A DNA stretch of 64,000 nucleotides, taken from positions 104,842,001 through 104,906,000 of the forward strand of contig OZ024744.1 in the NCBI GenBank assembly GCA_964016885.1, written 5' to 3'. The DNA comes from Eledone cirrhosa. Its lineage: Eukaryota. The notes below the pieces were generated by a model. It did not search any database and was not told the DNA's origin. It worked only from the letters and a program-made list of their open reading frames with translations. A program made the position numbers and the translations under genes. Below are positions 2,521-63,602 of the stretch, piece by piece (the stretch's first letter is position 1; every line of letters starts with the position of its first letter).

Positions 2521-2840
2521 TTAGCCTTTCAGGGCCCTTGAGAAGTTTCTCCATTTTTCCCTACCATTTACATCCCTCTTCATGTATACTCTGGCTTTCA
2601 TTTCCTCTTCTGTCATCTTTAGCCAAGTCTTTCCTCTACTTCCTTCCACATTCATTCCCATCACTTCTTTCACCCAGTCACTTCCATCTTTCCTCAACAC
2701 ATGACCCAACCATCTCATTCTATTTCTCTTCACATCACTGGTTCTATTCCCATCACATCTCTCACCCAGTCGCTTCCATCGTTCCTCCACACATGACCCA
2801 GTCATCTCATTCTATTTCTCTTCACATCACTGGTTCTATT
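2521..2840 (-). mobile_element. RTE LINE 3' fragment with an internal ~92-bp duplication
   Basis: Translation RMRWLGHVLRKDGSDWVKEVM...SRGKTW is typical of the RTE C-terminus. Confidence 0.8.
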
Positions 2841-5341: not shown

Positions 5342-5539
5342 CCAGGCGGCAATGGCGTGTGAGAAATTAGTGGTCAGACTGGATTTTCGTGAAGGGAGAT
5401 TTGACAGCGTTAGTGAAACCTCCTCTCTTGTCTGTATTATCACTTTTCTGCTGGGCATAAAAAAGTGTTGTATTTATAACCTCGTTGAAGTTAGAAGGAT
5501 GGATATATGATCTGACTTGTGGTTAGTATCTCCAAAGGG

Positions 5540-12688: not shown

Positions 12689-12870
12689 AAATTGGGTTTC
12701 CGTGTGTGTGTATATATAAGCTAATGTGTTTGTGTCCGTATGTGTATATATATGGATGTATATGTAATGTATTTTGCAATACACTTTATGCTTAATTAAA
12801 AGCATTTTGAAGACCGTAAGCTATTGTTTTAAAGTAGTGACAAATTCACTCACTTTGAACTCAGCAAACA

Positions 12871-12932
12871 GGGGAGATAAGCCGACAAGACTTGTTTCGC
12901 TTTGGTTGAAGCTTATCAAGGCCAACTACCCC
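12871..12932 (-). ncRNA. Type I hammerhead ribozyme, U3:A8 variant (inverted copy)
   Basis: Exact reverse complement of 13142-13203. Confidence 0.8.
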
Positions 12933-13141
12933 ACCTGTCTACTGAGATCATTGATGTTATATTCTTATAGAAATCTAGTAAATAATCAGGAGCTGATTAT
13001 GCAGAGCGGTTGTTGGTCAGGCAGAAATTAAAATTCTAATTTTTAATTTCTGCCTGACCAACAACCGCTCTGCATAATCAGCTCCTGATTATTTACTAGA
13101 TTTCTATAAGAATATAACATCAATGATCTCAGTAGACAGGT

Positions 13142-13203
13142 GGGGTAGTTGGCCTTGATAAGCTTCAACCAAAGCGAAACAAGTCTTGTCGGCTTATCTC
13201 CCC
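13142..13203 (+). ncRNA. Type I hammerhead ribozyme, U3:A8 variant
   Basis: ggcc-TTGATAA-gctt(caacca)aagc-GAAA-caag t cttg-TC-ggct; predicted GUC cleavage after 13190. Confidence 0.8.
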
Positions 13204-13724
13204 TGTTTGCTGAGATCAAAGTGAGTGAATTTGTCACTACTTTAAAACAATAGCTTACGGTCTTCAAAATGCTTTTAATTAAGCATAAAGTGTATTGCAA
13301 AATACATTACATATACATCCATATATATATTGGTATTTCAGAGCTCCAATTCTAATTTTTATATATATATATATATATATGAGCTGATGTGATTGTGTGT
13401 GTGTGTATGAGCTGATGTTTTTGAGTGTGTGTGTGTGTATGTGTGTATATATGAGCTGATGTGTTTGTGTGTTTGTGTGTTTGTGTGTGTGTGTGAACTG
13501 ATGCGTTTGAGTGTGTGTGTGTTTGTGTGTGTATGTGAACGGATGTGTTTGAGTGTGTGTGTGTGTGTGTTTGTGTGTGTATGTGAACGGATGTGTTTGA
13601 GTGTGTGTGTGTGTGTGAACTGGTTTGTTTGAGTGTGGGCGATTGTGAATTTGTTTGTTTTTTTACAACAGGTCTCAATAGTGAAAGTATAATGCAGACA
13701 CACCCAATTGTATGGATTTCTTAA

Positions 13725-21019: not shown

Positions 21020-23215
21020 CGAGCACATAAGCCAGATTGACTTCTTGCTAGTTAGGCAGTGAGACAGATGGATGGTGTCAAATACTAAGGCTTACCCTGG
21101 GGAAGACTGTACCCCACAGCATAGGTTAGTCGTTAGTGACATCTCAGTAAGCAAGAGAAAGAATGAGACATACAGGAAGGTGTGGAAAAGAAAGGTCTGG
21201 AAGCTAAAAGACCTTTCATTAAAACATAAATTTAGCAAAGCATTTCAAGATGCGTACAATGAAAAAGAAGATGATTTAGAGTTGTATGACATAGATGATA
21301 ACTGGAATTTCTTGCGTGACAACTTACTGCAGGCTACTGAAGAAACTTGTGGTTGGGGCAGGGCTTCAACCAGAGAGAGAATGACCATGGTAGATAGGGC
21401 CATTAGAGACAAAAGACTGGCATGAAAGCTTGGAAAAATGGTGGGAGTAGAGACGGATACACAGCGCTAAGAGAGAAGCTAGACGTCAGGTGTTTCTTAG
21501 CATGCAGGGACACTGAGAGTAGGAGGTTTGCCAATGTTCTGCGACGGGAAGATCAGAGACGTGCGGTGTTCCGCATTGCAAGGCAGTGTGTCAGTGAAAA
21601 TCAGGATGTTGTTGGAGATAAGTATGTCTGAAATGATGCCGGTGTACTTAGTGTCATGAATGATCAGAAAAAGGAGGCCTGGAAATGTCATTACGAGAGA
21701 CTGATGAATGTGGAGAATGAATGGGAGAGAGAGAAATTACCCTCAGTAGATCCGACAGAGGGACCAGCTATTGAGATTGACGAATATAGGGTACAAGAGG
21801 CAACTAAGGAAATGAAGAATGGTAAGGCTGCTGGGCCATCGGGGATAGTTGCTGAGATGCTGAAGGCTTTAGGAGAAGTAGGCACTAAACTAGTTGCATG
21901 CATCATCAATCAAGCTATATATGGTGGTGTCATACCCAAAGACTGGTGCAGCAGTATTTTCATAAATTGTTTCAAAGAGAGGAGCAATTATAGGGGCATA
22001 AAGCTGATAGATCAGGTTATGAAAGTGGCAGAGAGAATATTAACGCAACTGATTAGAGAAAGGGTCAATTTAGATGAGATGCAGTTTGGTTTTGTGCCTC
22101 GGAAAAGTACAACAGATGGCCTCTTCATAGTGAGGCAACTACAAGAGAGGTTCTTTGAGAAGAATAAGCCACTATACTTAGCTTTTGTTGACCTAGAGAA
22201 GGCCTTTGATAGGGTACCCTGATCTGTCATCTGGTGGTCCCTAAGGAAACTAGGTGTTGAGGAATGGCTTGTGAAGACAGTGCAAACTTTGTACAGAGGT
22301 GCTGTCAGTAAAATGAGGGTAGGAATGGAGTTTAGTGAGGAATTCCAGATACAAGTAGGTGTACATCAAGGTTCTGTCCACTCTTGTCCATTATAGACCT
22401 TCAAGCCATAACGGAGGAGTTTAAGACTGGATGCCCATGGTAACTTCTCTATGCTGATGATCTGGTTCTTATAGCAGAATCAGTAAAGTAGCTAGATTCC
22501 ATCAGGGAAATGGCCATGTTCGATATGTAGGAAAAGAACTGGCATAAATTCTATAAAATGTACGCAATGCAGATCTTGGGTACACAAGGGATGTAGTGGG
22601 ATAGCAGGCAAACTAACAGGTAGGGAAAACTACATATGCAGTAGATGTTCAGGGAAAGTTGGCAGTATTAATCGCTGTGATAGACTCATTTTTCCAATGC
22701 AGGTGGGTTCTATAGAAGTGGTTGATAGCTTCCAGTACCTAGGTGATCAGATTAGCATGGGATGGGGGTGTTCCGAGGCCATAGTATCTAGAATAAGGAT
22801 GGGTTGGAAGAAGTTTAGGGAGCCGCTTCCTCTGTTGACAAAGAAGGGTTTCCCTCTGCATACGAAAGGACGGTTATATGATGCCTGTGTGAGATGCGCA
22901 ATGCTGCATGATAGTGAGACATGGGCAGCAACTGTAGAAAATATGCAACGGCTGGAGAGAAATGAAGCACGTATGCTCCGTTGGATGTGCAATGTCAATG
23001 TGCGTGAACAACCAAGCATAGACAAGTTGAGAAAGAAACTGGGTATAAGAGGGATAAGTTGTGGTGTGTAGGAGAGAAGACTGAGATGGTATGGACATGT
23101 AATGCGCATGGAGGATGCCCGATGGGTGAAGAAGTGCCAGGAAGTCCCAGTGGAGGGAAGATGCAGTAGAGGTAGACCACGAAAAACATAGGCGGATGTG
23201 GTGAGAGCAGACCTC
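21020..23215 (+). mobile_element. RTE LINE pseudogene (EN end, RT, C-terminus)
   Basis: IDFLLV, QHRLVV, KAAGPSGI, FVDLEKAFDRVP, YADD, LRWYGHV; many stops. Confidence 0.92.
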
Positions 23216-23216
23216 A

Positions 23217-26200
23217 GATTGCTGAGACTCACTTCATGGTCGACACAGGATCCAGTTGCAGTATTTGGCCTCTTCGATTCAGCTCTACCAAGCCAAATTT
23301 TTCCGGATTTCCTTGTATGCAGTAAACCAGTCTCCTATAAAAACTTATGGACAAATATCTTTATCATTGGACCTAACTTTGCGTCGAGATTTCAAATGGA
23401 TTTTCGTCATTGCGGACCTACCTCATCCTATTCTCGGTGCTGATTTTTTACACCACTATTCACTGTTGGTAGATGTCAGGAGACAGAAACTTGTGGATGG
23501 TGCCACATCCTTATCTACGCCTGCTCGTAGGTCTATTGCTACTGTCATAAGTCCCACGTGTTTTATAGCTGCCTCTGGAAACCAGTTTCATTCACTTCTT
23601 GCCTCGTTTCCAGAGTTAACTGACATTTCATTTAAACCGAACCAAGTAGTCCACTCGACTCGACACTTTATTACAACAACTGCTCCGCCTGTTTTTTCTC
23701 GTCCACTTAGGTTGGCTCCGGACAGGCTAAAGAAAGCCAAGGATGAGTTCGAACACATGCTTCAGCTTGGTCTTATACAACCGTCCACCAGCCCATGGGC
23801 ATTTCCGCTTCACTTGGCTCGTAAGGGTGAAGCGAATTTTAGACCTGTGGGAGATTATAGACGACTTAATGGCATCATTACACTTGATTGTTATCCTTTA
23901 CCAAATTTACAGGATTTTTCATCCGTTCTGCATGGATGCAAGATATTTTCTAAAATAGATCTGGTACGGGTTTACCATCAAATTCCCATGCCTCCAGAAG
24001 ACATACCAAAAACAGCTGTGACCACCCCTTTTGGTTCATTTGAATTTCTGTCCATGCCTTTTGGTTTGCAGAATGCCTCTAGTACGTTCCAACGTTTTTC
24101 GATGAAGACACGCGTGGATTGGATTTCGTGTTTTCTTACGTGGATGATCTCCTGATAGCCAGTGATTCAGCTGAGCATCATCATCAACATCTATCTCAGT
24201 TATTTCAACGTCTTCGATCGTACCAAGTCAGAATCAACCCAGCTAAATGTGTGTATGGTACAGCTTCACTGGAATTCCTTGGACATCTTATAGATTCGGA
24301 AGGCATACGATCTTTGCCATCTAAGGTAGAAGCGATTCAGCATATCGCACCACCCACCTCCCTGAAACAATTACGTCATTTCTTGGGATTAATTAACTTT
24401 TATCGTCGCTTCATTCCTAACTGTGCGGACAAGTTGTTCCCCTTGACACAGTTTTTAAAGGCTACAAAAAAGAAAGATGCTCCTATTTCACTTTCTGCCG
24501 ATGCTTTGCAGTCTTTTGAATCCGTCAAGTCTGAGCTAGCTGAAGTTTCCTTCCTCGCCCATCCTGTTGCAAACGCGAGACTTTCTTTATCTGTTGATGC
24601 ATCCGATCATGCTGTTGGAGCAGTTTTGCAACATGCGATCGACCACCAGGTTCAACTACTGGCGTTCTTCTCACGCCAACTAAAACCAGCAGAGCAACGT
24701 TACAGTACTTTTGACAGAGAGCTTTTAGCAGTTTATCTTGCTGTGAGACACTTCCACCATCTTCTTGAAGGTCGGGAGTTCAGGGTATTCACAGACCATA
24801 AACCACTCACATTCGCTCTTCAAACCAATTCCGACAGGTACTCTCCGAGAGCGTATAGGCATCTGGATCTCATCTCCCAGTATACCAGTGAGATTCGTCA
24901 TAGAGCTGGAACTGCCACCATACCTGCGGATGCACTATCTCGACTTTCTGTGTGTTCTCTTGCATCTCCTGGACACATCGATTTGGTTGCCATAGCAACT
25001 GACCAACCTACTTTGGATTCGTTGGACATTTCTTCTACCCAGCTTTCCTGCTGTAAATTAGAATATTTACTTCTTCCGTCTTCTGAAGGAAAAATTCTTT
25101 GCGATATTTCTACTGGTTCACCCAGACCACTTGTTCCGGATTGTCATCAGCGTACCGTTTTTGATGCACTTCATTCCTTGTCACACCCTGGCATAGCTGC
25201 CATGGTGAAGCTTATTACGGCTCGATTCTTCTGGCCTAACATGCATCGTTTAATCACCGGTTGGGCACGCTCTTGTTTGAAGTGTCAGCGCTCTAAGATT
25301 TATCGGCATGTCCGCGCTCCTCTTGGGAAATTCAGCCCGCCAGATGCACGTTTCCGTCATATACACATGGATATAGTTGGTCCGTGGCCCGTTAGTCGTG
25401 GGTTCACATATATATTGACTTGTATTGATCGTTTCTCTCAGTGGCCTGAAGCCATACCCCTCATGGACATAACAGCAGAGTCTGTTGCCCAAGCTTTCAT
25501 TTCCAATTGGATTGCTCGCTTTGGTATTCCTACTAAAATAACTACGGATCGTGGATGCCAATTTGAAGCTTCCTTATTTCATGAAATATCACGACTCTTG
25601 GGTGCTTATCACATTCATACGACCAGCTATCACCCAGCCTCCAATGGAATGGGGGAGAGGTTTCATAGACAGTTGAAAGCTGCACTTTGCGTTACTTCTG
25701 ATCCGCAACGTTGGACCAAATTTTTGCCAATCGTGCTTCTTGGTTGTCGTTCTGCCATTAAGACAGATTTAGGTTTTTCTTCTGCTGAACTTCTTTATGG
25801 TACCACATTGACTCTTCCTGGACAAATGTTAGCACCAGTAGATTCATCGCATCTTGACCCAGCATCATATGTCACCAGGATTCGTTCGTATTTCTCGGAT
25901 CTTCCACCAATGAACCCTCGTGACCAGTCTATTTCTTCTGCTGTCCGATCAGACATCTCTACATGGACATACATTTTTATAAGGAATGATTCCGTCAAGG
26001 GACCGCTTATGTCACCCTACAATAGACCTTTTCGTGTGCTTTCGCACACACCCAAACATTTCACAGTGGCTGTCAATGGTCGAAAAGAGACAATATCCAT
26101 TGACAGAGCAAAGAAGGCTTTCTCTGAAAGTCTCATTACACTGCCTGACATACCTCGTACATACACTCCCACACCAACACCTTCACCTCCACCGCAAACA

Positions 26201-26284
26201 CTACATACCAGACAACCTTATGTCACACGAGGTGGCAGGACGGTAAAATGGCCACGAAAACTCTCAAAAATAATATACATCTAA
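23217..26284 (+). mobile_element. Ty3/Gypsy pol (CsRn1/Kabuki-like): PR-RT-RH-IN with two frameshifts
   Basis: FMVDTGS at ~23233-23253, ILGADFL, DYRRLN, YVDD, VDASD, HPG..CLKC, integrase DDE motifs. Confidence 0.93.
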
Positions 26285-27885: not shown

Positions 27886-28468
27886 TAACATGTATCCCAG
27901 TACAACCTGTCTCATGGTCGGGTCGTTGGCGACTAAACTGGCAACCCCACCAAGGTTTCTTGGTGAGGAGGGTGACTTTGGACATCCTGCAGGACTAAAA
28001 ACAAAACCTGTCAAAGGGCAAAGGAGCTCTTAAGAGTCAATGGCCATCCAAAATCACCGGGAGAGATGACCCCTTAGCCTTTGTCAAGGCAGAATTCTAG
28101 GAGAAGGAAAACTCTGATGTAACACCTGCAACCCTGATGGTATCCAATGATGTTGACTTGTTCTTCTTTTTGGTAAATATCATCTTGGTTAAGAGAGTGG
28201 GACTGGCTTTGTGCAGTGCCTTTGCTCACTATAAAAGCTTCACGGCACAGGCATTGCTTTATATCTGGAGATCTCTCTGCACTTGTTGTCACATGGTACC
28301 ATGGGCCCAGCACTATGTGTCAATAATTGTCACAAGTGTAGTGTTTGTACCAGAGTTTTCAAGTCGCTGGCTGGACTAAAAAGTCACAGTCGTTCAGCGC
28401 ATCGGTAGGGGTTCTCCTACATGGATATAAAGTAGTGGCCGTACTCGAAAACGAGTTGGCAGCCACCA
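27886..28468 (+). mobile_element. Non-autonomous RTE-derived element inserted in (TATG)n
   Basis: RTE 5'UTR-like ctaggagaaggaaaactctga; 3' end tactcgaaaacgagttggcagccacc shared with 31659-31700 and 37790-37830(-). Confidence 0.65.
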
Positions 28469-28712
28469 TGTGTGTATGTATGTATGTATGTATGTGTGTA
28501 TGTATATGTGTATGTGTGTATATGTATGTATGAATCTATGTATGTATATGTATGTATGCATGCATGTATGTATGCATGTATGTATGTATGTATGCATGTA
28601 TGTATGTATGTATGTATGTATGTGTGTATGTATGTATGTATGTATGTGTGTATGTATATGTGTATGTGTGTATGTATGTATGTATGTGTGTATGTATGTG
28701 TGTATGTGTGTA

Positions 28713-31460
28713 TGGCATCTTTTGGACTACGTCCTAGTCAGGATGCGTGACAGACAGGATGTGCGGTGTGTTCGTGTTCTTCGTGGAGCTGAGTGCTGGA
28801 CGGACCACCGCCTGGTACGCGCAAAAGTGAATCTAATCACCAAACGTAAAATCCGGGCTCCTGGTGTTACCCTGCCCAAAAGATTGAATGCTGCTCGTCT
28901 TAAGGATAAAAATGTGAAGAGGACATTGGAAGAAGAGATGCAGGCTGCAGATCTTGGTGAGGATTGGCCGACCCTTAAAAAGTCGGTTTATGATGTAGGC
29001 AGACGTGTTCTGGGATTGGTGCAGAGAAAACATCAGGACTGGTTTAATGAGAAAGATGTGCATATAGATGACTTGTTGGCTGATAAGAGGCGCGCTCTGT
29101 CACGCTACTTGACGGCAAGACCACAGGAGAGGAATACGTTGCATGAGGAGCTCAGGGATGTAAAATCACGTGTTAGGCGGAGTCTTTCTCAGATGAAGGA
29201 TCAGTGGTGGAGTGAGAAGGCTGGTGAGATACAAACTGCGTCTGATTGCAATAACACAAAGCTGTTGTACAGTCTCTTGCGTGAGGTTTATGGACCGTCT
29301 TCTTCTCTGGTGACACCGATTCGCAGCAAGGATGGCAAAGAACTTCTTCGTGACTCACAGGGAATTCTACGAAGGTGGCGGGAGCACTTTGATGATCTTT
29401 TGAATCAGCCGTCTGTCGTCAGTGAAGATTTCCTCAATCTCATTCCGGAAAGTCCTGTGAAAGTAGCTCTCGCAGAGCCTCCGACACTTGTGGAGGTTGC
29501 AGTGGCTATTTCGAAGCTGAACAGTGGAAGATCTCCAGGTATGGATGGCATACATGCTGAGCTCCTACAATATGGTGGTGAGAGACTCCTGCAATATCTT
29601 CACTCTCTGTTTGGAAGGATATGGGCTAATGAATCCGTGCCTGAGGACTGGAGAGATGCAGTAATGGTGGTCTTGTACAAGGGGAAGGGTAACAGGAATG
29701 ATTGTGGGAACTACAGAGGTATATCATTGCTTTCTGTCGTGGGGAAAGTTTTATGTAGGGTGCTTCTGGACCGTCTGCTGACACACATTGCAGATTGTGT
29801 CCTTCCTGAAAGTCAATCTGGTTTTCGTGTTGGACGCGGCACTACTGATGTGATCTTCTCAGCTAGACAGCTCCAGGAGAAGTGCATTGAACAGGGCTTG
29901 GATCTGTATCAGGTTTTTGTCGATCTGACAAAGGCTTTCGATACTGTCAACAGAGATGCATTATGGAAGGTTCTCCAGAAACTTGGTTGCCCTGATAAGT
30001 TCCTTGCTTTAGTTAGGTCTTTCCATGACGACATGAAGGCTTGGGTTAATGTCGGAGGTAACATGTCGGAGCCTATCTCAGTAAAAAATGGAGTGAAACA
30101 GGGGGATATTCCAGCACCGACCCTGTTTGCCATATACTTTGCAATGGTTTTCTGTATTGCATTCAGGAATTGCGAGCATGGTGTTTACATCCGATATCGA
30201 ACCTCAGGCAGCATATTTAACATCAGGCGCTTTGCTGCGAAGACAAAAGTATTTACATCAGTCATAAGAGACCTCCTGTATGCAGATGATTGCGATCTTG
30301 TAGCGCACACAGAGAGTGATATGCAGCACATTTTGAATGTATTTTCTGACGCTTGCACTGCCCTGGGTTTGACTGTCAGTCTCAAGAAAACCGTCGTCAT
30401 GTACCAACCTGCACCTGGTAGGCAGTACACTGAACCAAACATCTATGTGTATGGCAAACGACTTGGAGTGGTTGATCAGTTTGTCTACCTGGGAAGCACT
30501 GTCAATCGATACGGCAACCTTGACGGTGAAATCTCACTTAGGATTAGGAAAGCAAGTGATGCTTTCGGAAAGCTAGAAAGGCGACTCTGGGGTCGGCGAG
30601 ACATATGCAGGAGGACAAAGGTAAGGGTGTACAGGGCATGTGTACTCTCTTGTCTTCTTTATGCCTGCGAGACCTGGGTCACATATCGACGCCACCTTAA
30701 GCAATTGGAGCGTTTCCATCAGATGTGTCTCAGACGGATACATGGCGTTCGCTGGAGGGACCACATCAGTGATGTCGAGATTTTGGAAAGCTCTATGTGT
30801 GACAGTATAGAAGCTCTTGTGCTTAAGCAGCGACTCCGTTGGAGTGGTCACCTTGCCAGGATGAAGGATTCTAGAATACCAAAACAACTCTTCTATGGAG
30901 AGTTGGTTAAAGGAAAACGACCGCCACATAAACCAAAAAAGAGGTATAAGGATTCCTTGAAGGCCTCTCTGAAAGACGCTAACATCTCTGCTGATACATG
31001 GGAAAATATTGCTGCTGATCGTAATAAATGGAGAAAGACTGTATATGAGGGAAAAGTTGCCTTTGAGGCATCTCGAATCGCACACGAGAAAGTAAAGCGG
31101 GACGTGAGGAAGGGTATTGCTGTTGCACTTCCAGACGGCGAGGGTCCTCCTATGTTTCTGACATGCAGCGTCTGTGCGAGACTCTGCCTAAGCAAAGCTG
31201 GACTCGAAAGTCATCTTCGCAGTCATAAAGTAAGACCAGTGGTTGACTACCAGGCTGCTGTTGGAGATGCTACTCATCATGCTTGCCAAACATGTGGTAG
31301 AGAATGTAAATCAGCAGGAGGACTCAAGCGACATGCAAAAGTACACGAACTCCAACCACAGCCGACTATTCCCAGTAAATGTTTTGGTTGCCGACTCTGT
31401 GCAAGACATTTTGGATCATTGGCTGGGCTAAAAAGCCACATTCGATCGCAGCACTGTTAG
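28713..31460 (+). CDS. RTE LINE ORF: 5'-truncated AP endonuclease, reverse transcriptase, three C2H2 zinc fingers; no stops
   Basis: LLDY..TDHRLV, SPGMDGI, NYRGISLL, FVDLTKAFD, GVKQG, LLYADD, FVYLGS, LRWSGH; CSVC..HLRSH, CQTC..HAKVH, CRLC..HIRSQH. Confidence 0.95.
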   Translation, partial: WHLLDYVLVRMRDRQDVRCVRVLRGAECWTDHRLVRAKVNLITKRKIRAPGVTLPKRLNAARLKDKNVKRTLEEEMQAADLGEDWPTLKKSVYDVGRRVLGLVQRKHQDWFNEKDVHIDDLLADKRRALSRYLTARPQERNTLHEELRDVKSRVRRSLSQMKDQWWSEKAGEIQTASDCNNTKLLYSLLREVYGPSSSLVTPIRSKDGKELLRDSQGILRRWREHFDDLLNQPSVVSEDFLNLIPESPVKVALAEPPTLVEVAVAISKLNSGRSPGMDGIHAELLQYGGERLLQYLHSLFGRIWANESVPEDWRDAVMVVLYKGKGNRNDCGNYRGISLLSVVGKVLCRVLLDRLLTHIADCVLPESQSGFRVGRGTTDVIFSARQLQEKCIEQGLDLYQVFVDLTKAFDTVNRDALWKVLQKLGCPDKFLALVRSFHDDMKAWVNVGGNMSEPISVKNGVKQGDIPAPTLFAIYFAMVFCIAFRNCEHGVYIRYRTSGSIFNIRRFAAKTKVFTSVIRDLLYADDCDLVAHTESDMQHILNVFSDACTALGLTVSLKKTVVMYQPAPGRQYTEPNIYVYGKRLGVVDQFVYLGSTVNRYGNLDGEISLRIRKASDAFGKLERRLWGRRDICRRTKVRVYRACVLSCLLYACETWVTYRRHLKQLERFHQMCLRRIHGVRWRDHISDVEILESSMCDSIEALVLKQRLRWSGHLARMKDSRIPKQLFYGELVKGKRPPHKPKKRYKDSLKASLKDANISADTWENIAADRNKWRKTVYEGKVAFEASRIAHEKVKRDVRKGIAVALPDGEGPPMFLTCSVCARLCLSKAGLESHLRSHKVRPVVDYQAAVGDATHHACQTCGRECKSAGGLKRHAKVHELQPQPTIPSKCFGCRLCARHFGSLAGLKSHIRSQHC

Positions 31461-38180: not shown

Positions 38181-38614
38181 TGTCTATGTATGTGGGAAAA
38201 AGCGTTAATTACAACATTTTAGGTGGTATCCTTTTTGGGAAAAAGAAAAAAGAATTGTTTTTTGTGAATCTGAGTGACAAAAGTCTCAAAAGTCTCAAAG
38301 GATCAAGCATGACTTTTCAAACAATTTCACTTTTGGAAACCTTAATCAGCATGTTTTGCAATCCCCTCACAGATTGTAACACATCATCATTTGCGCCCTT
38401 GTAACCCTTGTTCTTCGTGTAAACAGTATTATCAACAGCAAAATATATTTAAAGCCATTTGGATTTATGAAGTCTTTACAAAGATATATTCCTTGAAAGG
38501 AGTGAATATGAGCCAATTCAGATTTGAAAGATTATTCATAATATAGATCAGGTGGAAATTTATTAGTATGAGTCGCATTATTAGAAGGTGGATTGGCAGA
38601 ATCGGTAGAACTGT

Positions 38615-41600
38615 CTATTGGCACCATGAGGAGATGGGTCGTGTGAAGATAGACGCTTGTGGACGTACCTCATGTGGACGGTGGAATGAGTGACAGAAAG
38701 ACGCAAGGTAAGTCCAAATGCCTCCGGCTACAAGCTATTTTGGTATTTAAAGAATGTTCCCATCTTTCGGCATTCTTACTCCCGACAGCGTTTTAGTTTA
38801 CCTATTTTTTTTTTTTTTTTTTTTTTTTTTACGTGGGGTATTGTTGACTTTTCTGATCTCGCAGGGGAGATGCCTACAAAATTGAAAGTGAGTAGTGAGG
38901 CCATCAAGGTTTTTAACGGCGAGGGAGATGTTGTTGCCTGGTTGAGAAAAGTTACATTGGTTGCCTCGCTGCAAGGCATTGACAACATAGGTGGCTTGAT
39001 CGCTCTGTATCTTGATAGAGATGCACTGGCACTGGACCTCAAGATGGACGAGAGAGATCAACTGAATGCAGAGAAGATAGGGCAGCGACATAAGGAAGCG
39101 TTCACTGAGGGGCTGTATGGTGCTTTTGCCAAGCTAGGCAGAGCGAGATAGAAGGGAGAACACGTGGATGTGTTCGCAACGGAGTTACGGCAGTTGGCTA
39201 CGTTGGCCGGATTTGCGGTAGAACGCGAATGTGTTGTGTGGGCAGCGTTTATGAATGGGTTCCCCGACGAAATCTCATTGAGGCTCCAACAGCTGGCTGG
39301 CAACAGAGAGATGAGTATGAGCGAGCTAATCACGCACGCCCACGTAATAACACAGGACACGAAGTGGAATGTTGCAGCGCTGGCAGACGACAGCAACCGA
39401 TGTACGACGAAAGGAGACCAGCTGCTGTGAATAGTCATCCGCGTGCGTGCTTCAGGTGTCAGGGCCCTCACATGGTAAGGGACTGCAGAGAGCTGAAGCC
39501 AGCTATAGTCTGCTATTGCTGAAAATGACTAGGCCACATTGCCAATAATTGCGACCAGGGAAATGGTCCATGGGGTCTACAGCACCAGTAACCACTCCTG
39601 GAAGCGATTAGAGGTGCCTTTGCAGTCGTTGCCCGTAGTGGAAGTTCTGGTGGGGAGGAAGTCATCGCGAGCACCCATGGACACGGGTTACACGACAACA
39701 CTAGTGACCACGGAAGTGGTTAAAAAGTAGAGCGGGATGAGCAGTATAAGGGCAGTCGACGGCAAGGAGATTAGATGCAGAGGTAGCAGCGAGGTGTCGA
39801 TGGTGGTACAGGGAAGAAAAATTAGGCTTCGAGTGATCGTGATTGACCATGTGGTGGATGGAATCGATGTAGTAATGGGCATGGAAGTGATTGACTGCTT
39901 AGGAGGTGCTACAGTGAGTGAAGTCGGGGTGACATTTGGTAGCGACAGGACATCATGTGCTGTAAGCGTACTGGGAAAATCCACAAAGAAAATACCATAC
40001 AGGACAAGGATTTCAAGGATTTCAGGGCGGTGTTCAATGGGCAGCGGTGGGTAGTTGAGTGGTACTGGAAGGGAGATCCACCAACGCTGATGAATAGAGT
40101 GGGCTGCTATCAGCATACCTTGAAAGGAGATGCCAGAAGCGAGTTTGAGGGAGCGGTACAGAGATGGATCGAGGAGGGTATACTGCTTCCCTGAAAGGAG
40201 GAGGTAAAGTGTGAAGTGTTGCCACTAATGGCAGTGGTGCAGCTCACGAAGAATAAGGTTAGGTCGGTGCTGGACTTTCGTGGGCTGAACGAACACGTGT
40301 CATGCCACACAGGCGGTGACGTCATGGATGTTTGTGGGGAAACCTTGTGAGAATGAAGATGAATGAGGGGGGGGGGGGGGCTCCACGATTGTCGACTTAA
40401 AGTTGGCATATCTGCAGTTACACATGGATGAGAAGCTGTAGAAATATCAGCTGGTCAGGTTTAAGGGCCAGACATACTGCCTGACCAGGATTGGCTTCGG
40501 GTTGAACTCTGTGCCAAAAATCATGGCGACGATCCTCAAGGCCATTCTGGGGAAAAGCAGACAAGGTCAGGAGGGCCACCAACTCCTACATCGACGACAT
40601 CTTGGTGGACGAGATAGTGGTGTCAGCAGCAGAGGTCTCAGGCTACTTGGGAAGGTTCGGACTGACTGTGAAACCACCGGAGGCGATGGAAGGAGGAGCC
40701 GCACTAGGACTGATAAGACAGGCACACTGGGGTTTCGGAGGGGTAACAAAGTCCCGGTACTGGGCCCTGATATGAATAGACGAGAACTTTTCTCAATGTG
40801 TGGTAAATTGATGGGACACTATTCGATCGCAGGGTGGCTCCGGATGGCATGCAGCTATATCAAGAGACGAGCAGAGGGGGGGTGAGCTGGGGTGACAGGG
40901 TTGGAGAGAGGACAGTGGCCATGATGCAGGAGATCATGGAGAGGGTAAAGGCAGATGACCCAGTGAGAGGAGGCTGGTACGTCCCCAAATCGGAGAGCGG
41001 GACCATATGATGCCAGCAGCATAGCACTAGGGGTCACTCTGGAGATAGGGGCCGTCAAGGTCGAGGACGCAGCCTGGCTCAGGAAGAAGACGGACTGCAA
41101 CCACATCAACGTGGCCAAACTGGATGCTGTGCTGAGAGGAGTGAATCTCGCCCTGAGATGGGGGTTGCGCACTATAGAAATGCATACTGACTCAACCACT
41201 GTACTTGGATGGGTGAGATCAGTGCTTACCAGTGAGAGGAGGGTGCGAAAGAGAGGGGCAGCATAAATCTTGATAAAGCGCCGCCTGTGAACTATGGGAG
41301 AGCTGTCCACCAAGTTCAGCCTGGAGTTGTGTGTGGGTTTTTGTACCCCCAGAGAAAAACAGGGCAGACATATTAACCAGGGTGAAGAAAGCCTGGCTGG
41401 AAATACCAGAGGACGCAGAGAAGGGGATAGCGGCAGTGTGATTTGGAGTTGAGGGGACTGCATGCCATTCACCACATGGGGGTGGGTAGGAATCTGTTCC
41501 TAGCCAGAAGAATTGACTCTGATGTTAGCAGACAGAGTGTCCAGAGAGTGGTCGGAGGTTGCGACAGATGCCAGTCTATTGACCCTGCCCCGGATGTGCA

Positions 41601-42572
41601 CGAGACAGGCAGCATCCCGGTAGAACACAACTTGAAGTGATTAGCGGTGGACGTGACACATTACCGACAAGGAACGTATCTCTCGATGGTCGATTGTGGC
41701 CCGAGACGGATGGAGATATGGAGGGAAATGAAGACAGAGATTACGGAGGAATTCGCGCGGACACTGAGAGAGATATTATTGGAGCAGGGCCCTGTAGATG
41801 AACTGCTGATGGACAAGAGCACGGCATTTCGCTCAGAGGTGCTGTGGGAAATGCTTGACAAGTGGAAGGTGAACCACTTCTTCAGAGCGGCATACAGGCC
41901 AAGCGGAAATGGAATCGTGGAGAGACACCATCACACGATCAAGGCCATGGCGGAAAGGGGGCACATTTCGCCAATGGAGGCAGTGTTCTGGTACAACATG
42001 TCTCCTCGGGTTGGACAGGCCGGGGAGTCGGTGCCGCACAGGGCAATATATAGATACGAATGGCGACACCCGTGCACGGTACCACAGCAGCCGGTGGAGA
42101 GAGAGAGAGCGCATTCGTACGAGTGGGCAAAGAGGTATGGGTCAAGCCCCCCGAACGCGCGTTGCACATCTGGGGAAAGGGAATGGTAACCGCCGTAAAT
42201 TCCCAAAACAACGTGTCTGTGGATGGAATGCCACGTCACGTCTCGGACATTCCATAGAGTCGTTGTTGTGATGTGATGGGGGGGGGGGATCCTTGAGATC
42301 GGAGAGGGAAGGGGGGGGGCTGCCGTGAGATAGATAGAGGGGTGTGTAGAGCTGCCGTGGGAGGGGGATTGCCAGCAGTTGGGGGACACCTGTCCGGAAG
42401 CAGGAGGACGGAGGGTGACACGAGGAACCAAGCGGTGGGCAGCGGTCACTTGGCTGTTGGCACCGTGAGGAGACAGGTCGTGTGAAGACAGACGCTGTTT
42501 GGAAGTATCCCACGTGGACGGTGGAACGAGTGATAGAAAGACGCAAGGTAAGTCCCAATGCCTCCGGCTACA
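38615..42572 (+). mobile_element. Divergent Gypsy-like LTR retrotransposon, near full length but decayed (partial 5' LTR 38615-38732; 3' LTR 42345-42572)
   Basis: Matching LTR sequences, TGTAG..CTACA ends, PPT; gag FNGEGDVVAW with CCHC, DTG protease, YIDD RT, RH, HHCC and DDE integrase. Confidence 0.92.
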
Positions 42573-43019: not shown

Positions 43020-43305
43020 AATGATAATAATAATAATAATAATAATGAAATTATTGTGTACAGTGCTCATGTGCACTACAACTCATCAAAGGTGCATGTA
43101 TAGTACATAGAATAATGTACAAATGTCAGGAAAATGAACAGTGTATGAGTCATGATATAATAATAATAATAACAATAATAATGAAATATTGTGTACAGTG
43201 CCCAGGTGCACCACAGCTCATCAAAAAGTGCATGTACAGTACATAGGGCAATGCACAAACAAATGAACAGTGCACGAGTCATGATACACACATGTGTGCA
43301 TGGGG
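43020..43305 (-). mobile_element. Two tandem CR1 3' tails ending in (ATT)n
   Basis: Reverse complement of 6650-6775, present twice. Confidence 0.85.
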
Positions 43306-45881
43306 GCAGGGCTCTGGGTTTCCACCTCTTCTTGGGTTTCCTCTTCCTCGGAGTCCGTCGACACAGTGATTCTTCTTACATCCAGGACATGACGTGGTAC
43401 CCCGTCCACGGACACATTGTTCCTTGAATTTACGGCCGTCACCGTTCCCCTTCCCCATTGAGATGTGAACCGTGCATCTGGGGGCTTAACCCAGACTTCT
43501 TCGCCCACCTGCACGAATGCACTCTCTCTCCCCACTGGCCGTTGTGGTGGCGTGCACGGGTGCCGCCACTCGTATTTGAATACTGCTCTGTGTGGCACCG
43601 ATTCCTCGACCTGTCCAACCCGAGGGGACATATTGTACCAGAACACTGCCTCCATTGGTGAGATATGGCCCCGCTCCGCCATTGCCTTGATCGTCCGGTG
43701 GTGTCGCTCCACGATTCCATTCCCGCTCGGCCTGTGCGCCGCTCTGAAGAAACGGTCCACCTTCCATCCATCGAGCATCTCCCTCAGTGCCTCCGAGCGG
43801 ACCGCTGCGCTGTTGTACATCAGCAGTTCATCCACAGGGCCCCGCTCCAAGAACACCTCTCTCAACATCCGCACGATTTCCTCGGCCGTTCCAGTCTTCA
43901 TCTCCCTCCATATCGCCATTCGACCTGGTCCACAGTCGACCATCGAGAGGTACGTTCCCTGCCGGTAGTGCGTCACATCCACCGCTAATCGCTTCCAGTC
44001 GCGATCCACCGGGAGGCTTCCCGTTTCGTGTACACCCGGGGCGGGATCAATGGACTGACATCGGACGCAGCCTCTAACCACCCCCCGAACACTGTGTCTG
44101 CTAACGTCCGAGTCAATTCTCCTGGCTAGGAACAGGTTCCTATCCACCCCCATGTGGTGCATGTCATGCAACCCCTTCAGGTCTAACTCGGTCAGCCGAC
44201 ACACGGCAGCTATCTCATCCTCTACCTCCTCCGGCGCTTCCATCCAGGCTTTCTTCACTCTAGTTAAGATGACCGCCCTATTTTTCTCTGAGGGCACGAA
44301 CACTACGCTCAGCTTCAGGTCGAACTCGGTGGCCAGCTCTCCTAACGTTCCCAGGCGGCGCTTTATCAGCATCTCCGCCGCGCCTCTCGTTCGCACTCTC
44401 TTCTCACTGGTGAGCACTGATCTTACCCATCCGAGTACGGTAGCCGAGTCGGTGCGTATCTCGATGGTGCGCAGCCCCCACCGCAGGGCGAGGTTCACCC
44501 CTCTCAACACCGCGTCCAGCTCGGCCACATTGATGTGGCTGCAGTCGTCCTTCTTTCTAAGCCAGGCTGCATCCTCGACCTCAACACCTCCTATCTCCAA
44601 TGTGACACCCAGCGCTATGCTGCTGGCATCGCACCATACGGTCCCGCTCCGTGATTTGGGAACGTACCAGCGTCCCCGCACTGGGTCGTCAGCGTTCACC
44701 CTCCCCACGATCTCCTGCATCATGGCCACCGTTCTCTCTCCCACTCTGTCACTCCAAGTCACCCCTCCCGCTCGTCTCTTGACATAGCTGCATGCCGTCC
44801 GGAGCCACCCAGCGATCGGGTAGTGACCCACCAGCTTTCCACACACCGAGAAAAGCTCCCGCCTATTCATACTTGGGCCCAGTTCCGGAACTTCGTTTCC
44901 CCTCTGGAACACCAAAACGCCCGTCTTATCTCGCCGTAGCCTAAGTCCCAGCGCGGCTCCTCCCTCCAATGCTTCTGATGGCTTCGCAGTCAGTCCATAC
45001 CTCCGCAAATGGCTCGTGACCTCCGCCGTCGACACCACCGACTCGTCCACTAGGATGTCGTCAATGTAGGAGTTAGTAGCCCTCTTTATCTTGTCGGCCC
45101 TTCCCAGAGCGGTCTTGAGGACCGCCGCCATGATCTTCGGTGCGGAGCTCAGCCCGAAACCGAGCCTGGTCAGGCAATATGTTCGGCCCTTATACCTGAC
45201 CAGCTGATACCGCCAGAGCTTCTCATCTATATGCAACTGCAAGTAAGCCGACTTTAGATCCACGATCGCTGAACCCCCCCGTCATGCGTCTCCACTCACG
45301 CAGGGTTTCCCCGCAGACATCCGTGACCTCGCCACCCGTGTGGCATGACACGTGCTCGTTCAGCTCAAGGAAGAGTACCAACGCGTCGCCCTCGAGGTAC
45401 AATGCAATGAGACCGGCCACGTCTTCTATCTTCTGCAAGCCCGCGACCAGCCGAATCTTCCGCAGCCAAGCGACAACATCACCTTCCCCGGTGAATGGCC
45501 TGATAGCTTCGTTCATCCGTAGTCTTGTCGCCATCTTCTGATTTGTTTTGCGACAAGTGTTTTCTTTTTTTTTTTTTTTTTTTTATTCAGTCGCCGAAAT
45601 AGCTTGTGGTTAGAAAAAGCTATCTCACTTACCGCTTTTCACAGGCGCCGCTAAATTCCACTGCAGGTACTCCTCTTCCACGTGCGTCCGACTGCTTAAC
45701 ACCGGGAGCTGCCCAAAACGCGTCCTCACCGTATGCTGGTCACCACTAGAGAGAGGCCCTCTCCTGGCCCTTCCGGTCGAGCATCCTTCCGGTCAAAGAC
45801 CCCTTCCGGTCGAGCACTCAAAAACCCCTTCCGGTCGAGCACTCCCCCCCCCCGGCCACCGCACGCCACACCATACCCACA
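43306..45881 (-). mobile_element. Second divergent Gypsy-like element: 5' LTR 45881-45605, gag start fused to RT by deletion, open RT-RH-IN frame, no 3' LTR
   Basis: TGTGG..CCACA LTR; FTGEGDVVAW; DLKSAYLQL, YIDD, WCDAS, HHMG..CVRC, GNGIVER. Confidence 0.92.
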
Positions 45882-48600
45882 AATTCCATAGTTGTTATGG
45901 AATTTGATGTTAGAGATGGTGGAGACGGTACATTCTGGTTTTCAACAGTAAAAATACTTGCATAGCACTCAGCAATGAATTCTGCGCATTCTTTGGGATC
46001 GTCAGTGATCTGGCTTGTGTGGGTATTGCGAAGAGGACCAACTGGAGAGTGAGGTCTCTGCTTTGAATGAACATATTTCCAGAACACCTTACTGTCAGGA
46101 TTGGTTGCGATGCACTGTTCAAATTCAAGCACTGCCTTCTTTGTCACTTGCTTGAGATGGTTAGAAGATTTATTCCGCTTTTTTCTGTTGGCATCTGATA
46201 TATGCAGTTTATATTCCCGTTCAGCGTTCCGACGTTCTTTCCTGGCAAGTCGGACCGCTGAAGTTTCCCAAATTGCACTTTTGAGGTGGTTATTTTTTCC
46301 GCTTACGTGGCACCGATGCTGCACACGCTATCCATATTGAGTCCAGGATGCTCTGGAGTATAGTGTTCACATCTCCAGAGTTATACATCTCATGCCAGTT
46401 TGGGCGCTGTAGCTCAGTGCAGTACAAGTTCCAATCCGCCCTCTTCCAATCAAAGCAAGCAGATTGGAGATGGCTCTGGTTTTTGTTGCTGCCCTCAAGT
46501 GCCAGATTGGCAATGATCATAGCATGATCAGAGTCGCCTAGAGGTTCCTCAGTAGTACAACTGATAACCACTTCAAGAGTAGTGGTGAAGATCAGGTCCA
46601 AAGTGTTGTCACCTCTTGTTGGAGAGGTGACTACTTGTGACCAGTTTGAGTCCAGCACTAGTTCAAGGAAATCGTTTGCACCTTGTGGCCAACGAAAGGT
46701 TTCCCAATCGATCTCAGGATGATTGAAGTCACCTGCAATAAACACATAAGTGGCTGTTTTCTTGGCAGCAACTCTGAGGATATCGCAAAGCTGTGTGTCT
46801 TGATGGTAGTTTGGGGGGCGATAAACAACACCAAGCAGAAGTGTTGACATGGTCATACGTATGTCACAGAAAAAAACTTCTTCCTGTGATTCGTTCAAAT
46901 CAACGCAAGGAATTACCGAAAAGTTTGAACGAACGTAGACCATCACACCACCACCACGGCGATTAATGCGGTCCTTGCGGAAAAGGTTGTACCCAGTAAT
47001 GCTGAAAACCCCATCACAGAGTAAGGAATGTGCCCATGTTTCTGTGACTGTGATGAAGTCAGGGTCGATGCTTCTGACGTAGGATTCAAACAGATGTATC
47101 TTGTTGCATAAACTGCGAGCATTTAAGGACAACAATTTGTACCCTGCTCGCAGTATATGATGGTGTGTAGAGGGTGGCAGGTTGTTCTGGTTTAGTTTCC
47201 CAGAGTTGAAGCAGTTTTTTCATTGCCAGTTATTGTGGGTAGATCACACTCAGACCAGCTGGTATCTCTCCTCCACGTTTCACCAGCCTTGACAAACCTC
47301 CAGATCTGCCCATCATCACGCAGACTAAAACTTTCATGTTGTGCTGAGTTCCGATTCAAGGAAGCTGCAGCACGGAGCTTTGGACGTACATGGGGTGGTA
47401 GGCCTGGGCGTGTTCGGAAGGTAATCCGATTTTCACGCCCAGCTTTAACAGAAGCCAGATGGTATGAGGTTGCCTCAGCGGGGTCCGAAAAAGACAGCCT
47501 GGTGAGTCTGGGTTTTGGACCAGGTCGACCAAGGCAGAGAGCACCTTTTGGGGGAACAGAGCCTAGATCTTTGGCTGAGCTGGCAGCAAATGCCTGAAGA
47601 TCAGCCTTGTCCTCTGGTACCCCAATGGCAATCACTTCATGGGTAGCAGATTCCGCAGCCTTTTCAGTGTGGCCAGATACGGCAAGAGGTACAGGGAGAT
47701 TCTTTAGCAAGGCATTCCGATAAGACCCCTCATTGTGGGGTCCTACCCGAATGCTTGCCTTTATTCCTGTTACTTCCCTTCTTAAAGCAGAAATCATTAG
47801 TTGCAATTCTGCAAAATCTGTACTGGTCGGTTGTTGTTGTTGTTGTTGCTGCTGTTGCTGTTGTTGTTGGTGATGATGATGTTCCTCCACGGGAATGGTA
47901 GGGGAAGACACAGTCGCAGGTTGTTGCTGCTGTTGCTGTTGTTGTTGTAGTTGTTGGTGATGATGATGTTCCTCCACAGGAATGGTAGGGGAAGACACAG
48001 TCACCAGTTGTTGGTGTTGAGATGTACTAGGAGCGTAAGACATGGGTTGTTGTTGTTTTTGATGTTCTTCCACAGGAATAGCAGTAGAAGCCAGTGTCAT
48101 AGGTTTTTGCCGTTGTTCAGTAACAATGGTAGAGGAAGATACAGTCATTGGTTTTTGTTGTTGGTGTTGTTGTTTTTCAATAACATTAGTGGAGGCAGGC
48201 ACACAGGCCAGGCACTGAAACACCAGGATTTTAGCTTGATCATCTCCCAGATTCCATCCATCATAGCATTATGATGTCTCTTTTTTTGGCCTGGGATCCT
48301 CCGGAAGCCTGTGGCGCATTGAAGGCAGACAGAGATGCGACAGGTTCCACATTCGACCCAGCGATTACGGAACGAGTTTTCGGGTTCCGCACAGATATGG
48401 CAGATGTGGTTTTCTAGGCAATGTTCTATTTTGGAACATCGACCAGTTTTGTCGCATACTTCATCGATGGATATCACCATGGCAATTTTGTTATTTCTAC
48501 CCATCCGTAGAAAAGCACAGAATGTAAACAATATAGGTCTGAGACATTTCTTGTGGGTTTGAAATAGACATGACATTTACAGCACTCGAGCTCATCCCGA
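45882..48600 (-). mobile_element. CR1-type LINE 5' half: ORF1 (PHD-like finger, Q-rich; 48576-47192, frameshifted) and ORF2 AP endonuclease (47135-45882)
   Basis: CHIC..WVECGTC..CLQC; LNARSL, VTETW, RGGGV, VYRPP, AGDFN, LDLIF, SDH; FWKYV. Confidence 0.9.
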
Positions 48601-59860: not shown

Positions 59861-59976
59861 ATCTGAGTTCAAATCCCGCCGAGGTTAACTTTGCCTTTCA
59901 TCCTTACTGGGTCGATAAAATAAAGTACCAGTAATACACTGAGTAATTGCTGGCCTTGTGCCTAACGTAGAAACAG
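59861..59976 (+). mobile_element. 5'-truncated Deu/Nin SINE in the left arm only
   Basis: TSD cagttattgatct at 59852 and 59974; empty site at ~63425-63437. Confidence 0.92.
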
Positions 59977-60793
59977 TTATTGATCTATGTAAGTTTACAA
60001 ACTATCAGATAGAGAGAATATTTACTTACATGTTTATCACCAGCTGTTTTCAAAAGCAATAATAATTTTATTCAATAATAATTATTTGGAGGTAGTGAAA
60101 GAACTAACAAATCTAATTGTTTTTTTCATATGGTGTTAAGATGAAAAGTAATACACTTTAGTTGAGGTCATGACTCTTTGAAAGGTGTTAGTAGAAATGG
60201 CATAAAAATCTATTAGGAAGGAAGGGGATTGTCAAACTGATAGTTGAATGTATCTTGTATAGTGAATTTAAAAGGAATGTCAAAATAAATGGTGATTAGT
60301 GTTGTATTGAGTTTTAAGGTGAATATAAATTAATGTTATGGCTAGGAAAGATAGTATATTAAAAGATGAAAATTATAATAAGATAATGTGATGTAGTAAT
60401 GCAATAATATACAACTTAACCAACAGAATATAGTACGGTGTGGTAAATTGCACTCAGTATAATATAACATATTATACGCTCTAAAATATCACTAAGTATG
60501 TTTATGCATAAACAATCAAACTCAGATAAGTACATGTTGGCATAGTTAAAACACATAAATTTCATAGTCTACAAAGTGCATATATTCACACCACATACAG
60601 AGAGAGGTACAGTTATATTGATATCTAACCAAAATATACATACATGCAAATAGATGCAAACCTAAATACACATCCACACGCATGCATATAATCATATATA
60701 TACATATCCATACATATCTATATTCACACATACACATCTATACCCCCATATATACATATACATATACAGAAACATACACATATACACACACAC

Positions 60794-60824
<31 letters not shown>

Positions 60825-60827
60825 TAC

Positions 60828-60860
<33 letters not shown>

Positions 60861-61009
60861 CATATACATACACACATATATATATATATACATATACAAC
60901 ACACATACACATATATATATACACACTTGTGTGAGCATATGTACACTCCTCTTACATGTGCACATACTCATATTTAAATATTCATACACCTATACTCACA
61001 TATACACAC

Positions 61010-61046
<37 letters not shown>

Positions 61047-61362
61047 CACACACACATACACATATATATATATACACACCCATATATACATATATATATA
61101 TACATATAAAAACACATATACATACCCATACATATACATACACACATACACATACATACACAAGCATATACATATATACACATATACATAAACATATATA
61201 TATATAAATGGAATAGAATGAAACGAAATTTCATTTCTCACTCTTAGTACGGCACTTACTTAAATGTAAGTATGTATGTATGTATACGTACATAGATATA
61301 TGTATACAGACGTACAGTAGTACGTATATATATACATACATGCACACATATATATATGCACG

Positions 61363-61402
<40 letters not shown>

Positions 61403-61531
61403 AATATATACATACATAAATATATTTCCATATCATACATAGATGTTTATTTTCACTCATGCAATTACGGGTGGCTGTGTACCTTGTTGCCTTTAGTCAT
61501 TAACGCATAAATCTAAGGAAGCTAAAACATA

Positions 61532-61920
61532 ATGGAAACTTTGATTAATAATGTAGTATATAAATGCACTGTGTCTACTACAGACTCCAACAAAACATAT
61601 ATAGGATCTACATCAAACACTTTTAAGAAAAGATTTTACGCACACACTAGTAGTTTCAACAATACTAAACTAGCAAACACCACATCTTTAGCTGAAGCGG
61701 TAAATAATTATAAAAAGAAAAAAATAGATTTTAAGTTATCGTGGAACACCATTCTACAAAAACTCCATATCTTGGAAACAGGAGGAAATGCGGATTATGT
61801 TCAGGAGAGATCTTGGAAATTACTAAATCTAAGGACGATTTATTAAATAAAAGACAGGAATTGATCATAGTCTGTAATCACCGTATACAAAAAACATTTA
61901 AATACTATAAACCTAATTAA
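61532..61920 (+). pseudogene. GIY-YIG endonuclease of a Penelope-like element (frameshifted)
   Basis: VVY..YIG motifs, catalytic R, C-terminal LLNKR..C.H. Confidence 0.85.
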
Positions 61921-62152
61921 ATATTCTAAATAGCAACTCGCTATAATTCCGTATAGAATAACATTTATTAGTACCTCTTTCCCCTAATTATATGCTTTCA
62001 TGCTTATTTTTGCCTTTTAATGTTTTAGCTTCCTTAGATTTATGCGTTAATGACTAGAGGCAACAAGGTACACAGCCACCCGTAATTGCATGAGTGAAAA
62101 TAAACATCTATGTATGATATGGAAATATATTTATGTGTGTATATATTTGTGA

Positions 62153-62224
<72 letters not shown>

Positions 62225-62498
62225 GTATGTATGTGTATATATGTATATGCTTGTTTGTGTATGTATATATGTATATATATATATGTATATATGGGTGTGT
62301 ATATATATATGGGTGTGTGTGTGTGTGTGTATATATATATGTGTGTGTGTGTGTATATATATATATGTGTGTGTATATATATGTGTGTGTGTATATATAT
62401 GTGTTTGTGTGTGTGTATATGTGAGTATAGGTGTATGAATGTTTATATACGAGTATGTGCACATGTAAGAGGAGTGTACATATGCTCACACAAGTGTG

Positions 62499-62563
<65 letters not shown>

Positions 62564-63602
62564 GATGATGATGATATATATAAATGTATATGTGTATGTA
62601 TCTGTATATGTATATATGGGGGTATAGATGTGTATGTGTGGATATAGATATATATGGATATGTAGATATATGATTATATGCATGCGTGTGGATGTGTATT
62701 TAGGTTTGCATCTATTTGCACGTATGTATATTTTGGTTAGATATCAATATAATTGTACCTCTCTCTGTATGTGGTGTGAATATATGCACTTTGTAGACTA
62801 TGAAATTTATGTGTTTTAACTATGCCAACATGTACTTATCTGAGTTTGATTGTTTATGCATAAACATACTTAGTGATATTTTAGAGCGTATAATATGTTA
62901 TATTATACTGAGTGCAATTTACCACACCGTACTATATTCTGTTGGTTAAGTTGTATATTATTGCATTACTATATCACGTTAAGTTGTATATTATCACATT
63001 ACTATATCACAGTATCTTATAATAATTTTCATCTTTTAATATACTATCTTTCCTAGCCATAACATTAATTTATATTCACCTTAAAACTCAATACAACACT
63101 AATCACCATTTATTTTGACATTCCTTTTAAATTCACTATACAAGATACATTCAACTATCAGTTTGACAATCCCCTTCCTTCCTAATAGATTTTTATGCCA
63201 TTTCTACTAACACCTTTCAACCATTCCTTTCAAAGGGTCATGACCTCAACTAAAGTGTATTACTTTTCATCTTAACACCATATGAAAAAAACAATTAAAT
63301 TCATTAGTTCTTTCACTACCTCCAAATAATTATTATTGAATAAAATTATTATTGCTTTTGAAAACAGCTGGTGATATGCATGTAAGTAAATATTCTCTCT
63401 ATCTGATAGTTTGTAAACTTACATAGATCAATAACTGAGTATAGATACAATGTATTATCACCATCTAGAAATGATCGTAAAGCAGTGAAGTATATCTCTA
63501 ATGACTTGATTTTTTATTTCATTGTTTTAACTTATATATATATATATATATATATATAAGAGTATTGAAGTTTGCTTGGAGCATTGCGGAATAATAAGAT
63601 TT

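Follow-up and report, generated by a model that had tools for sequence, protein, structure and literature searches.

The sequence comparisons presented here suggest that a lineage of compact LTR retrotransposons characterized by a DUF7047 domain, which we call Gypsy-like, primes minus-strand DNA synthesis from a 12-nt 5' piece of a tRNA that ends at nt 12 (we give this reading a probability of about 0.8). The evidence for such a form of tRNA-fragment priming includes a 12-nt site that lies flush on the end of the 5' LTR and takes different forms matching the first 12 nucleotides of different tRNAs.

Two elements of this lineage are present in the 64,000-nucleotide stretch of Eledone cirrhosa DNA that was analysed (the window). 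Element 1 lies on the minus strand, with a 277-bp 5' LTR (45881-45605, TG...CA) that starts with TGTGG and ends with CCACA, and AGCTATTTCGGC abuts it at 45604-45593 with zero spacer. This 12-mer is the putative primer-binding site, and the earlier note on this DNA was right both about its position and about its being a 12/12 complement of tRNA-Phe nt 1-12, as the host tRNA-Phe(GAA) genes (L021, L061-L072) start with its exact complement. All but three of the tRNA-Phe gene copies listed, the three belonging to two variant genes, share that start. Behind the site, a gag fragment (45352-45534) is fused to the RT region through an internal deletion of ~1.2 kb, and the pol remnant (43300-45366; open frame at 43221-45281) retains part of the RT followed by DUF7047, RNase H and integrase, with no 3' LTR after it. 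A LINE-type endonuclease frame (45818-48268, minus strand) adjoins the LTR of this element. Element 1 is thus a broken copy with a single LTR within the window, so its boundaries depend on other copies, and for this reason 40 protein-selected copies of the genome were taken for anatomy; the LTR ends were set by copies that are complete, having two LTRs and a 5-bp duplication of the target.

These 40 copies were drawn in score order from the 150 DUF7047 matches listed for the host genome, skipping most of those on one contig (C1) and on small contigs. The 5' junction is visible in 34 of them, and the site is found within one mismatch in 32 (24 exact and 8 with one mismatch), being deleted or different in the other 2; the 12-mer is therefore conserved across copies, one of the points on which the earlier proposal depended. 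The complete copies measure 4.1-4.5 kb and have the hallmarks of LTR retrotransposons, with two direct TG...CA LTRs of ~210-380 bp. Their 3' LTR is preceded by a polypurine tract, and the target site is duplicated over 5 bp; the duplication is exact in 15 of the 22 copies that could be evaluated (6 were without an exact one, and 1 was scored as 6 bp owing to a misplaced start). Genome-wide, the 12-mer has 853 exact matches compared with 24 for a reversed-pattern control; among the first 30 matches, 25 come after the end of an LTR, one belongs to a tRNA-Phe gene and the other 4 are unrelated sequences. A conventional TGG site, located no more than a few bases from the 5' LTR and already noted as missing after the LTR of element 1, is absent from every visible junction of the host copies and of the metagenome homologues described below. 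Furthermore, no complement of the tRNA-Phe 3' end was found at the junction in any of the seven host copies searched for it, the only matches having 2-4 mismatches and lying away from the junction.

Element 2, on the plus strand, belongs to a second LTR family. The recognisable part of its 5' LTR spans 38612-38732 and is followed directly by a putative primer-binding site, AGCTATTTTGGT, at 38733-38744, a position confirmed by comparison with the 3' LTR (42345-42572; 88% identity over 124 nt), whose end at 42572 fixes the end of the 5' copy. Between them lie a gag-PR-RT-RNase H-IN region decayed by stops and frameshifts (38870-42266) and a short palindrome with a purine-rich tract (42288-42344) that precedes the 3' LTR. 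The site differs from the tRNA complement by two C>T substitutions, which had been interpreted as changes tolerated through G:U pairing. We reject such a G:U-tolerant variant, as the pattern across the family fits decay: 11 of the 30 loci of the second family are 5' LTRs, and the site is exact in 5 of them, has one change in 4 and two changes in 2 (element 2 being among these last), and the changes in the six inexact sites are scattered and mostly differ between copies. As five family copies are exact and the others carry mostly different changes, the two C>T changes of element 2 most likely reflect decay after insertion.

Beyond the host genome, 150 relatives were confirmed in a metagenome scan, which yielded 78 loci with 37-57% identity. 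Of these 78 loci, 54 have the site at the junction, in 12 versions of the form (A/C)GCTA-four variable bases-GGC, an invariance that is partly built in at positions 1-5 and 10, which were fixed in the search pattern. The 53 site-bearing loci with a protein segment represent 47 families at 90% identity. Regarding the remaining 24 loci, 22 have no junction in the contig, one (L142) has a partial site at the contig edge and one (L133) departs from the site after 7 bases, near its contig end. In five metagenome families (L128, L131, L132, L144 and L117/L119) the LTR ends are fixed independently by a 3' LTR that runs into flanking DNA. In 53 of the 54 homologues the site is preceded by A, when G would be required opposite tRNA C13, and the following base varies (A in 27, C in 17, G in 5 and T in 5), so that the match spans exactly from tRNA nt 12 to nt 1 and stops at the tRNA 5' end.

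The versions of the site follow different tRNAs. The host version, corresponding to tRNA-Phe, is carried by 14 metagenome loci; that of L159 and L170 corresponds exactly to nt 1-12 of host tRNA-Lys(CTT) genes, and that of L152 and L182 to nt 1-12 of host tRNA-Met(CAT) genes. These Met genes have G at nt 12 and the Met-type site has C as its first base, opposite this G12, so the base adjoining the LTR varies together with tRNA nt 12. Three further versions (7, 7 and 12 loci, 26 in total) correspond exactly to nt 1-12 of tRNA-Phe genes of eukaryote type from other records (L213; L296, L298 and L343; L281). One of these matches (L213) is among 34 loci retrieved with the acceptor stem left unspecified in the scan, and the other two came from a purpose-built pattern that also gave many archaeal hits and for which there is no chance level. 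The non-host Phe-like versions have no tRNA gene in the host genome (3 hits compared with 3 for the control). In all, 44 of the 54 sites were matched by the host Phe, Lys(CTT) and Met(CAT) versions and the three Phe versions from other records; for another 7 the only matches are tRNAs of prokaryotes or phages, whose isotypes are mixed and which we did not count as support, 1 has no match and 2 are one change off. The apparent covariation across isotypes is scored against the tRNAs of this genome and of other records, not those of each element's own host. With this covariation, priming by a 12-nt 5' tRNA piece remains the best reading of what had been described as a tRNA-Phe primer-binding site; the restriction to tRNA-Phe does not stand, given the Lys(CTT) and Met(CAT) versions.

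A quick tree of 80 RT-RNase H segments shows the versions scattered, one of them needing 10 changes in 11 rows and the host version 6 in 14. The Lys and Met versions share a single branch with 97% support, and the two Met-type and two Lys-type families may each represent one event. The three matched tRNAs (Phe, Lys and Met) have in common their first three bases and most of nt 8-12, a resemblance that would allow mispriming by a near-cognate tRNA and thereby conversion of the site. Could the site instead complement the 3' end of another conserved small RNA? A single other RNA would need to mimic three isotypes, and in the host genome the matches of the three verified versions that lie in gene clusters outside the elements are tRNA 5' ends, which makes this the least probable of the alternatives considered. 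Two observations on the tRNA genes themselves can be added. About 65 tRNA-Met(CAT) genes with a 22-nt intron form a tandem cluster in the host genome (L255-L274; G000:C2, 102.02-102.14 Mb) that the default tRNA scan missed. Eukaryote-type tRNA-Phe genes also occur in contigs labelled as bacterial MAGs (L281-L283, L286, L287, L308, L309; L296, L298, L343), one of them within a 3.7-kb tandem repeat, and their presence there is likely to be contamination.

The short site and the no-spacer layout recall Tf1, in which the transcript primes itself, and in host family 1 a U5 stretch located 13 nt upstream of the site (45618-45627, minus strand, in element 1) is predicted to pair with it in a 10-bp stem that includes G:U pairs. 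Self-priming by the 5' end of the element's own transcript, with an incidental tRNA match, nevertheless seems very improbable. Host family 2 has the same site without this U5 stem, the site follows three tRNA isotypes, and among 45 distinct metagenome elements the best run of pairing found in up to 450 nt upstream does not exceed that of shuffled controls (mean 5.7 vs 6.2), with a run of 10 in one element and the full 12-nt complement in none. We therefore reject self-priming, self-complementarity being at the level of the shuffled control; a full-length complement of the site is absent from that interval in all 45 elements, complementarity of the motif to the transcript 5' end being one of the outcomes that the earlier note had listed as overturning its proposal.

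Another explanation would be a longer primer, namely a host 5' tRNA fragment or half whose nt 1-12 anneal and from which priming takes place further along, U5 providing additional pairing. In the host families U5 is indeed predicted to pair with tRNA nt 14-27 (p<0.05 in 3 of 6 related copies), but this pairing is not general, as the 45 metagenome elements gave -5.7 kcal/mol compared with -5.4 for shuffles (p=0.56), leaving extended U5:tRNA pairing unsupported as a common feature. Moreover, priming inside U5 would exchange the LTR end for tRNA complement, and the 3' LTRs retain their CA end, so we consider a longer fragment highly unlikely. A separate observation is that the host U5 (45610-45622, minus strand, in the window, and L001, L010 and L073) is predicted to have two alternative pairing partners, the primer site and tRNA nt 14-27, an arrangement that is not general in the lineage; in these modelled structures it is possible that the alternative acts as a switch in the host families.

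According to the mechanism that we propose for the 12-nt primer, the tRNA 5' end would anneal to the site, a step that would open the acceptor and D stems, and the tRNA would be cut or trimmed back to nt 12, leaving a 3'-OH from which the RT would extend into U5, starting at the last base of the LTR. Plus-strand synthesis copies up to the PBS in the general scheme, as described in PMC7175516; here it would run off the 5' end of the primer and rewrite the site as exactly 12 bases, and this regeneration of the site by copying of the primer would be the reason why it tracks different tRNAs. The duplex alone has a predicted energy of -18.7 kcal/mol, and the 12-bp duplex forms in both host families in cofolds of the LTR-end RNA with unmodified host tRNA-Phe, which ignore modifications and tertiary structure. 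The cut is a predicted step, and pairing of nt 1-7 would release the 3' acceptor strand; both points leave room for an intact tRNA that binds through nt 1-12 as an accessory contact (for packaging, dimerization or docking) while its freed 3' end, or another RNA, does the priming. Extra tRNA boxes do exist in Ty1 and Ty3. However, the LTR end is set by the minus-strand start and no other primer site is found there, and an accessory box need not be flush with the LTR nor stop at nt 12, so that we regard an accessory contact as unlikely.

Priming by the 12-nt piece raises the question of what cuts the tRNA. The element's own RNase H is our first candidate because the geometry mirrors that of Tf1, in which, according to PMC7175516, the RNA's first 11 bases pair with the PBS and RNase H cleaves between bases 11 and 12; by this analogy the enzyme would do the same in trans, a guess to which we give about even odds. 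A host nuclease followed by trimming is less favoured, albeit a serious candidate. A bolder proposal, which we hold only tentatively, is that this is a deep, eukaryote-wide lineage with its own type of RNase H whose RT/RNase H would act as a tRNA endonuclease, cutting any tRNA annealed to the site after nt 12, as a form of the Tf1 trick in trans; it would constitute a fourth priming class and may link tRNA priming with self-priming. The old question of what cuts the tRNA in fragment priming would become testable with one enzyme and one tRNA, and very short 5' tRNA fragments would gain a possible function.

Three primer types are listed for LTR elements in PMC6317226, so the use of a 12-nt 5' primer by a Gypsy-like lineage would, if true, represent a fourth priming geometry, one that is kept across proteins diverged to ~40% identity. 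PMC10886601 names priming from the 3' end and from the anticodon loop and links truncated primers to Copia, and between them these two sources describe half-tRNA priming in copia, Ty5, Osser, Bryco, Bianca and fungal Copia/Helenus elements. The lineage resembles these in the 3'-truncated tRNA primer, the site next to the 5' LTR and the use of several isotypes. However, those primers terminate in the anticodon arm and their reports concern Copia lineages only, whereas here the match is to nt 1-12 and reaches the tRNA 5' end, the site does not complement the anticodon arm and the pol order is PR-RT-RH-IN. With Tf1/Sushi self-priming, as described in PMC7175516 and PMC4600332, it shares the pairing of the first 11-12 RNA bases and a primer that would arise from a cut just past the duplex, but the RNA would be a host tRNA acting in trans instead of the element's own transcript, no self-complement above the control level is found and the role of RNase H is here a prediction. 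In comparison with the CCA-end priming of Ty3/Gypsy, BEL and retroviral elements, the TG...CA LTRs, the 5-bp duplication, the polypurine tract and the PR-RT-RH-IN order are alike, but there is no TGG site, the opposite end of the tRNA is matched, and all 50 aligned members have an RVT_3-type RNase H and DUF7047.

Our literature search, which did not extend to Repbase, GyDB or most subscription journals, found no report of priming by tRNA nt 1-12, and searches for the motifs and DUF7047 returned unrelated papers only. The available text of the mollusc clade survey PMC6238403 does not contain the words primer or PBS, the supplementary files searched for PMC6238403 and PMC8556966 have no match for the motifs of the lineage, and the accessible parts of PMC4600332, PMC13524379, PMC3286476 and PMC3587641 describe other sites. 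There is some chance, albeit a small one, that the elements have already been catalogued and their site remarked upon. PBS searches with 12-nt tRNA 3' ends, as used in PMC13524379 according to its accessible text, illustrate how the site can be overlooked, since PBS finders that test CCA ends alone would call these elements primer-less.

At the protein level the lineage is found in molluscs, crustaceans, annelids, nematodes and sponges, with at least 850 proteins matching at E≤1e-20 among 7995 scored. Named relatives occur in Argonauta, Oratosquilla, Petrolisthes, Aplysia and Trichuris suis and, more distantly, in Sycon, and locus L144 was found in annelid runs (23 runs from 16 studies, 3 of them RNA). 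The sponge Sycon ciliatum has a distant DUF7047 sub-lineage with proteins of 1380-1400 aa (P0239, P0243 and P0256). Besides the two domains found in all 50 aligned members, 48 have rve, and the Gypsy-type RNase H (RT_RNaseH; PF17917/PF17919) is detected in a single one, weakly (E 0.008), compared with a score of 9e-28 for an ordinary Gypsy element in the same window. The PR-RT-RH-IN order is that of Ty3/Gypsy and not that of Copia, in which integrase precedes RT. BEL/Pao elements are marked by the Pao peptidase A17 and DUF1758/1759/5641, and none of these is among the 18 families matched by the 50 members. A profile comparison with the ordinary Gypsy of the window gave 20% identity and a probability of 93%. 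Fold searches retrieved retroviral RTs at 11-14% identity, a result biased by the library; searches of the PDB by sequence and fold gave no placement, the ESM Atlas returned only unnamed RT clusters and no relative of the protein was found in viral contigs.

Some other features of the elements deserve mention. A perfect short hairpin precedes the polypurine tract across the lineage (L113-L190, L073 and L088; 42288-42300 in the window), with a stem of at least 4 bp in 39 of 42 distinct loci (mean 5.6 vs 3.0 in shuffles) and many compensatory versions; in family 2 it is separated by ~45 nt from the LTR that follows, and it perhaps serves to position the polypurine tract. A motif resembling a splice donor is present in the U5 of the host families at 45 of 48 junctions (in the window at 45633-45627 on the minus strand and at about 38707-38713 on the plus strand), and element 2 has a T-rich, acceptor-like stretch at 38850-38864, ahead of the gag ATG; splicing, if real, would take the primer site out of the mRNA.

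Elsewhere in the window, the ordinary Gypsy pol (21632-26284, plus strand) has RT_RNaseH and integrase, its LTRs not having been found, and an RT open frame of 1009 aa, which has a C-terminal zinc finger, occupies 28431-31460 (plus strand). Finally, the window contains a 12-bp tandem array of more than 200 units (2700-5500), a perfect inverted repeat of 289 bp around a 7-nt spacer (12745-13329) and a 3.5-kb nested inverted structure (59974-63437).
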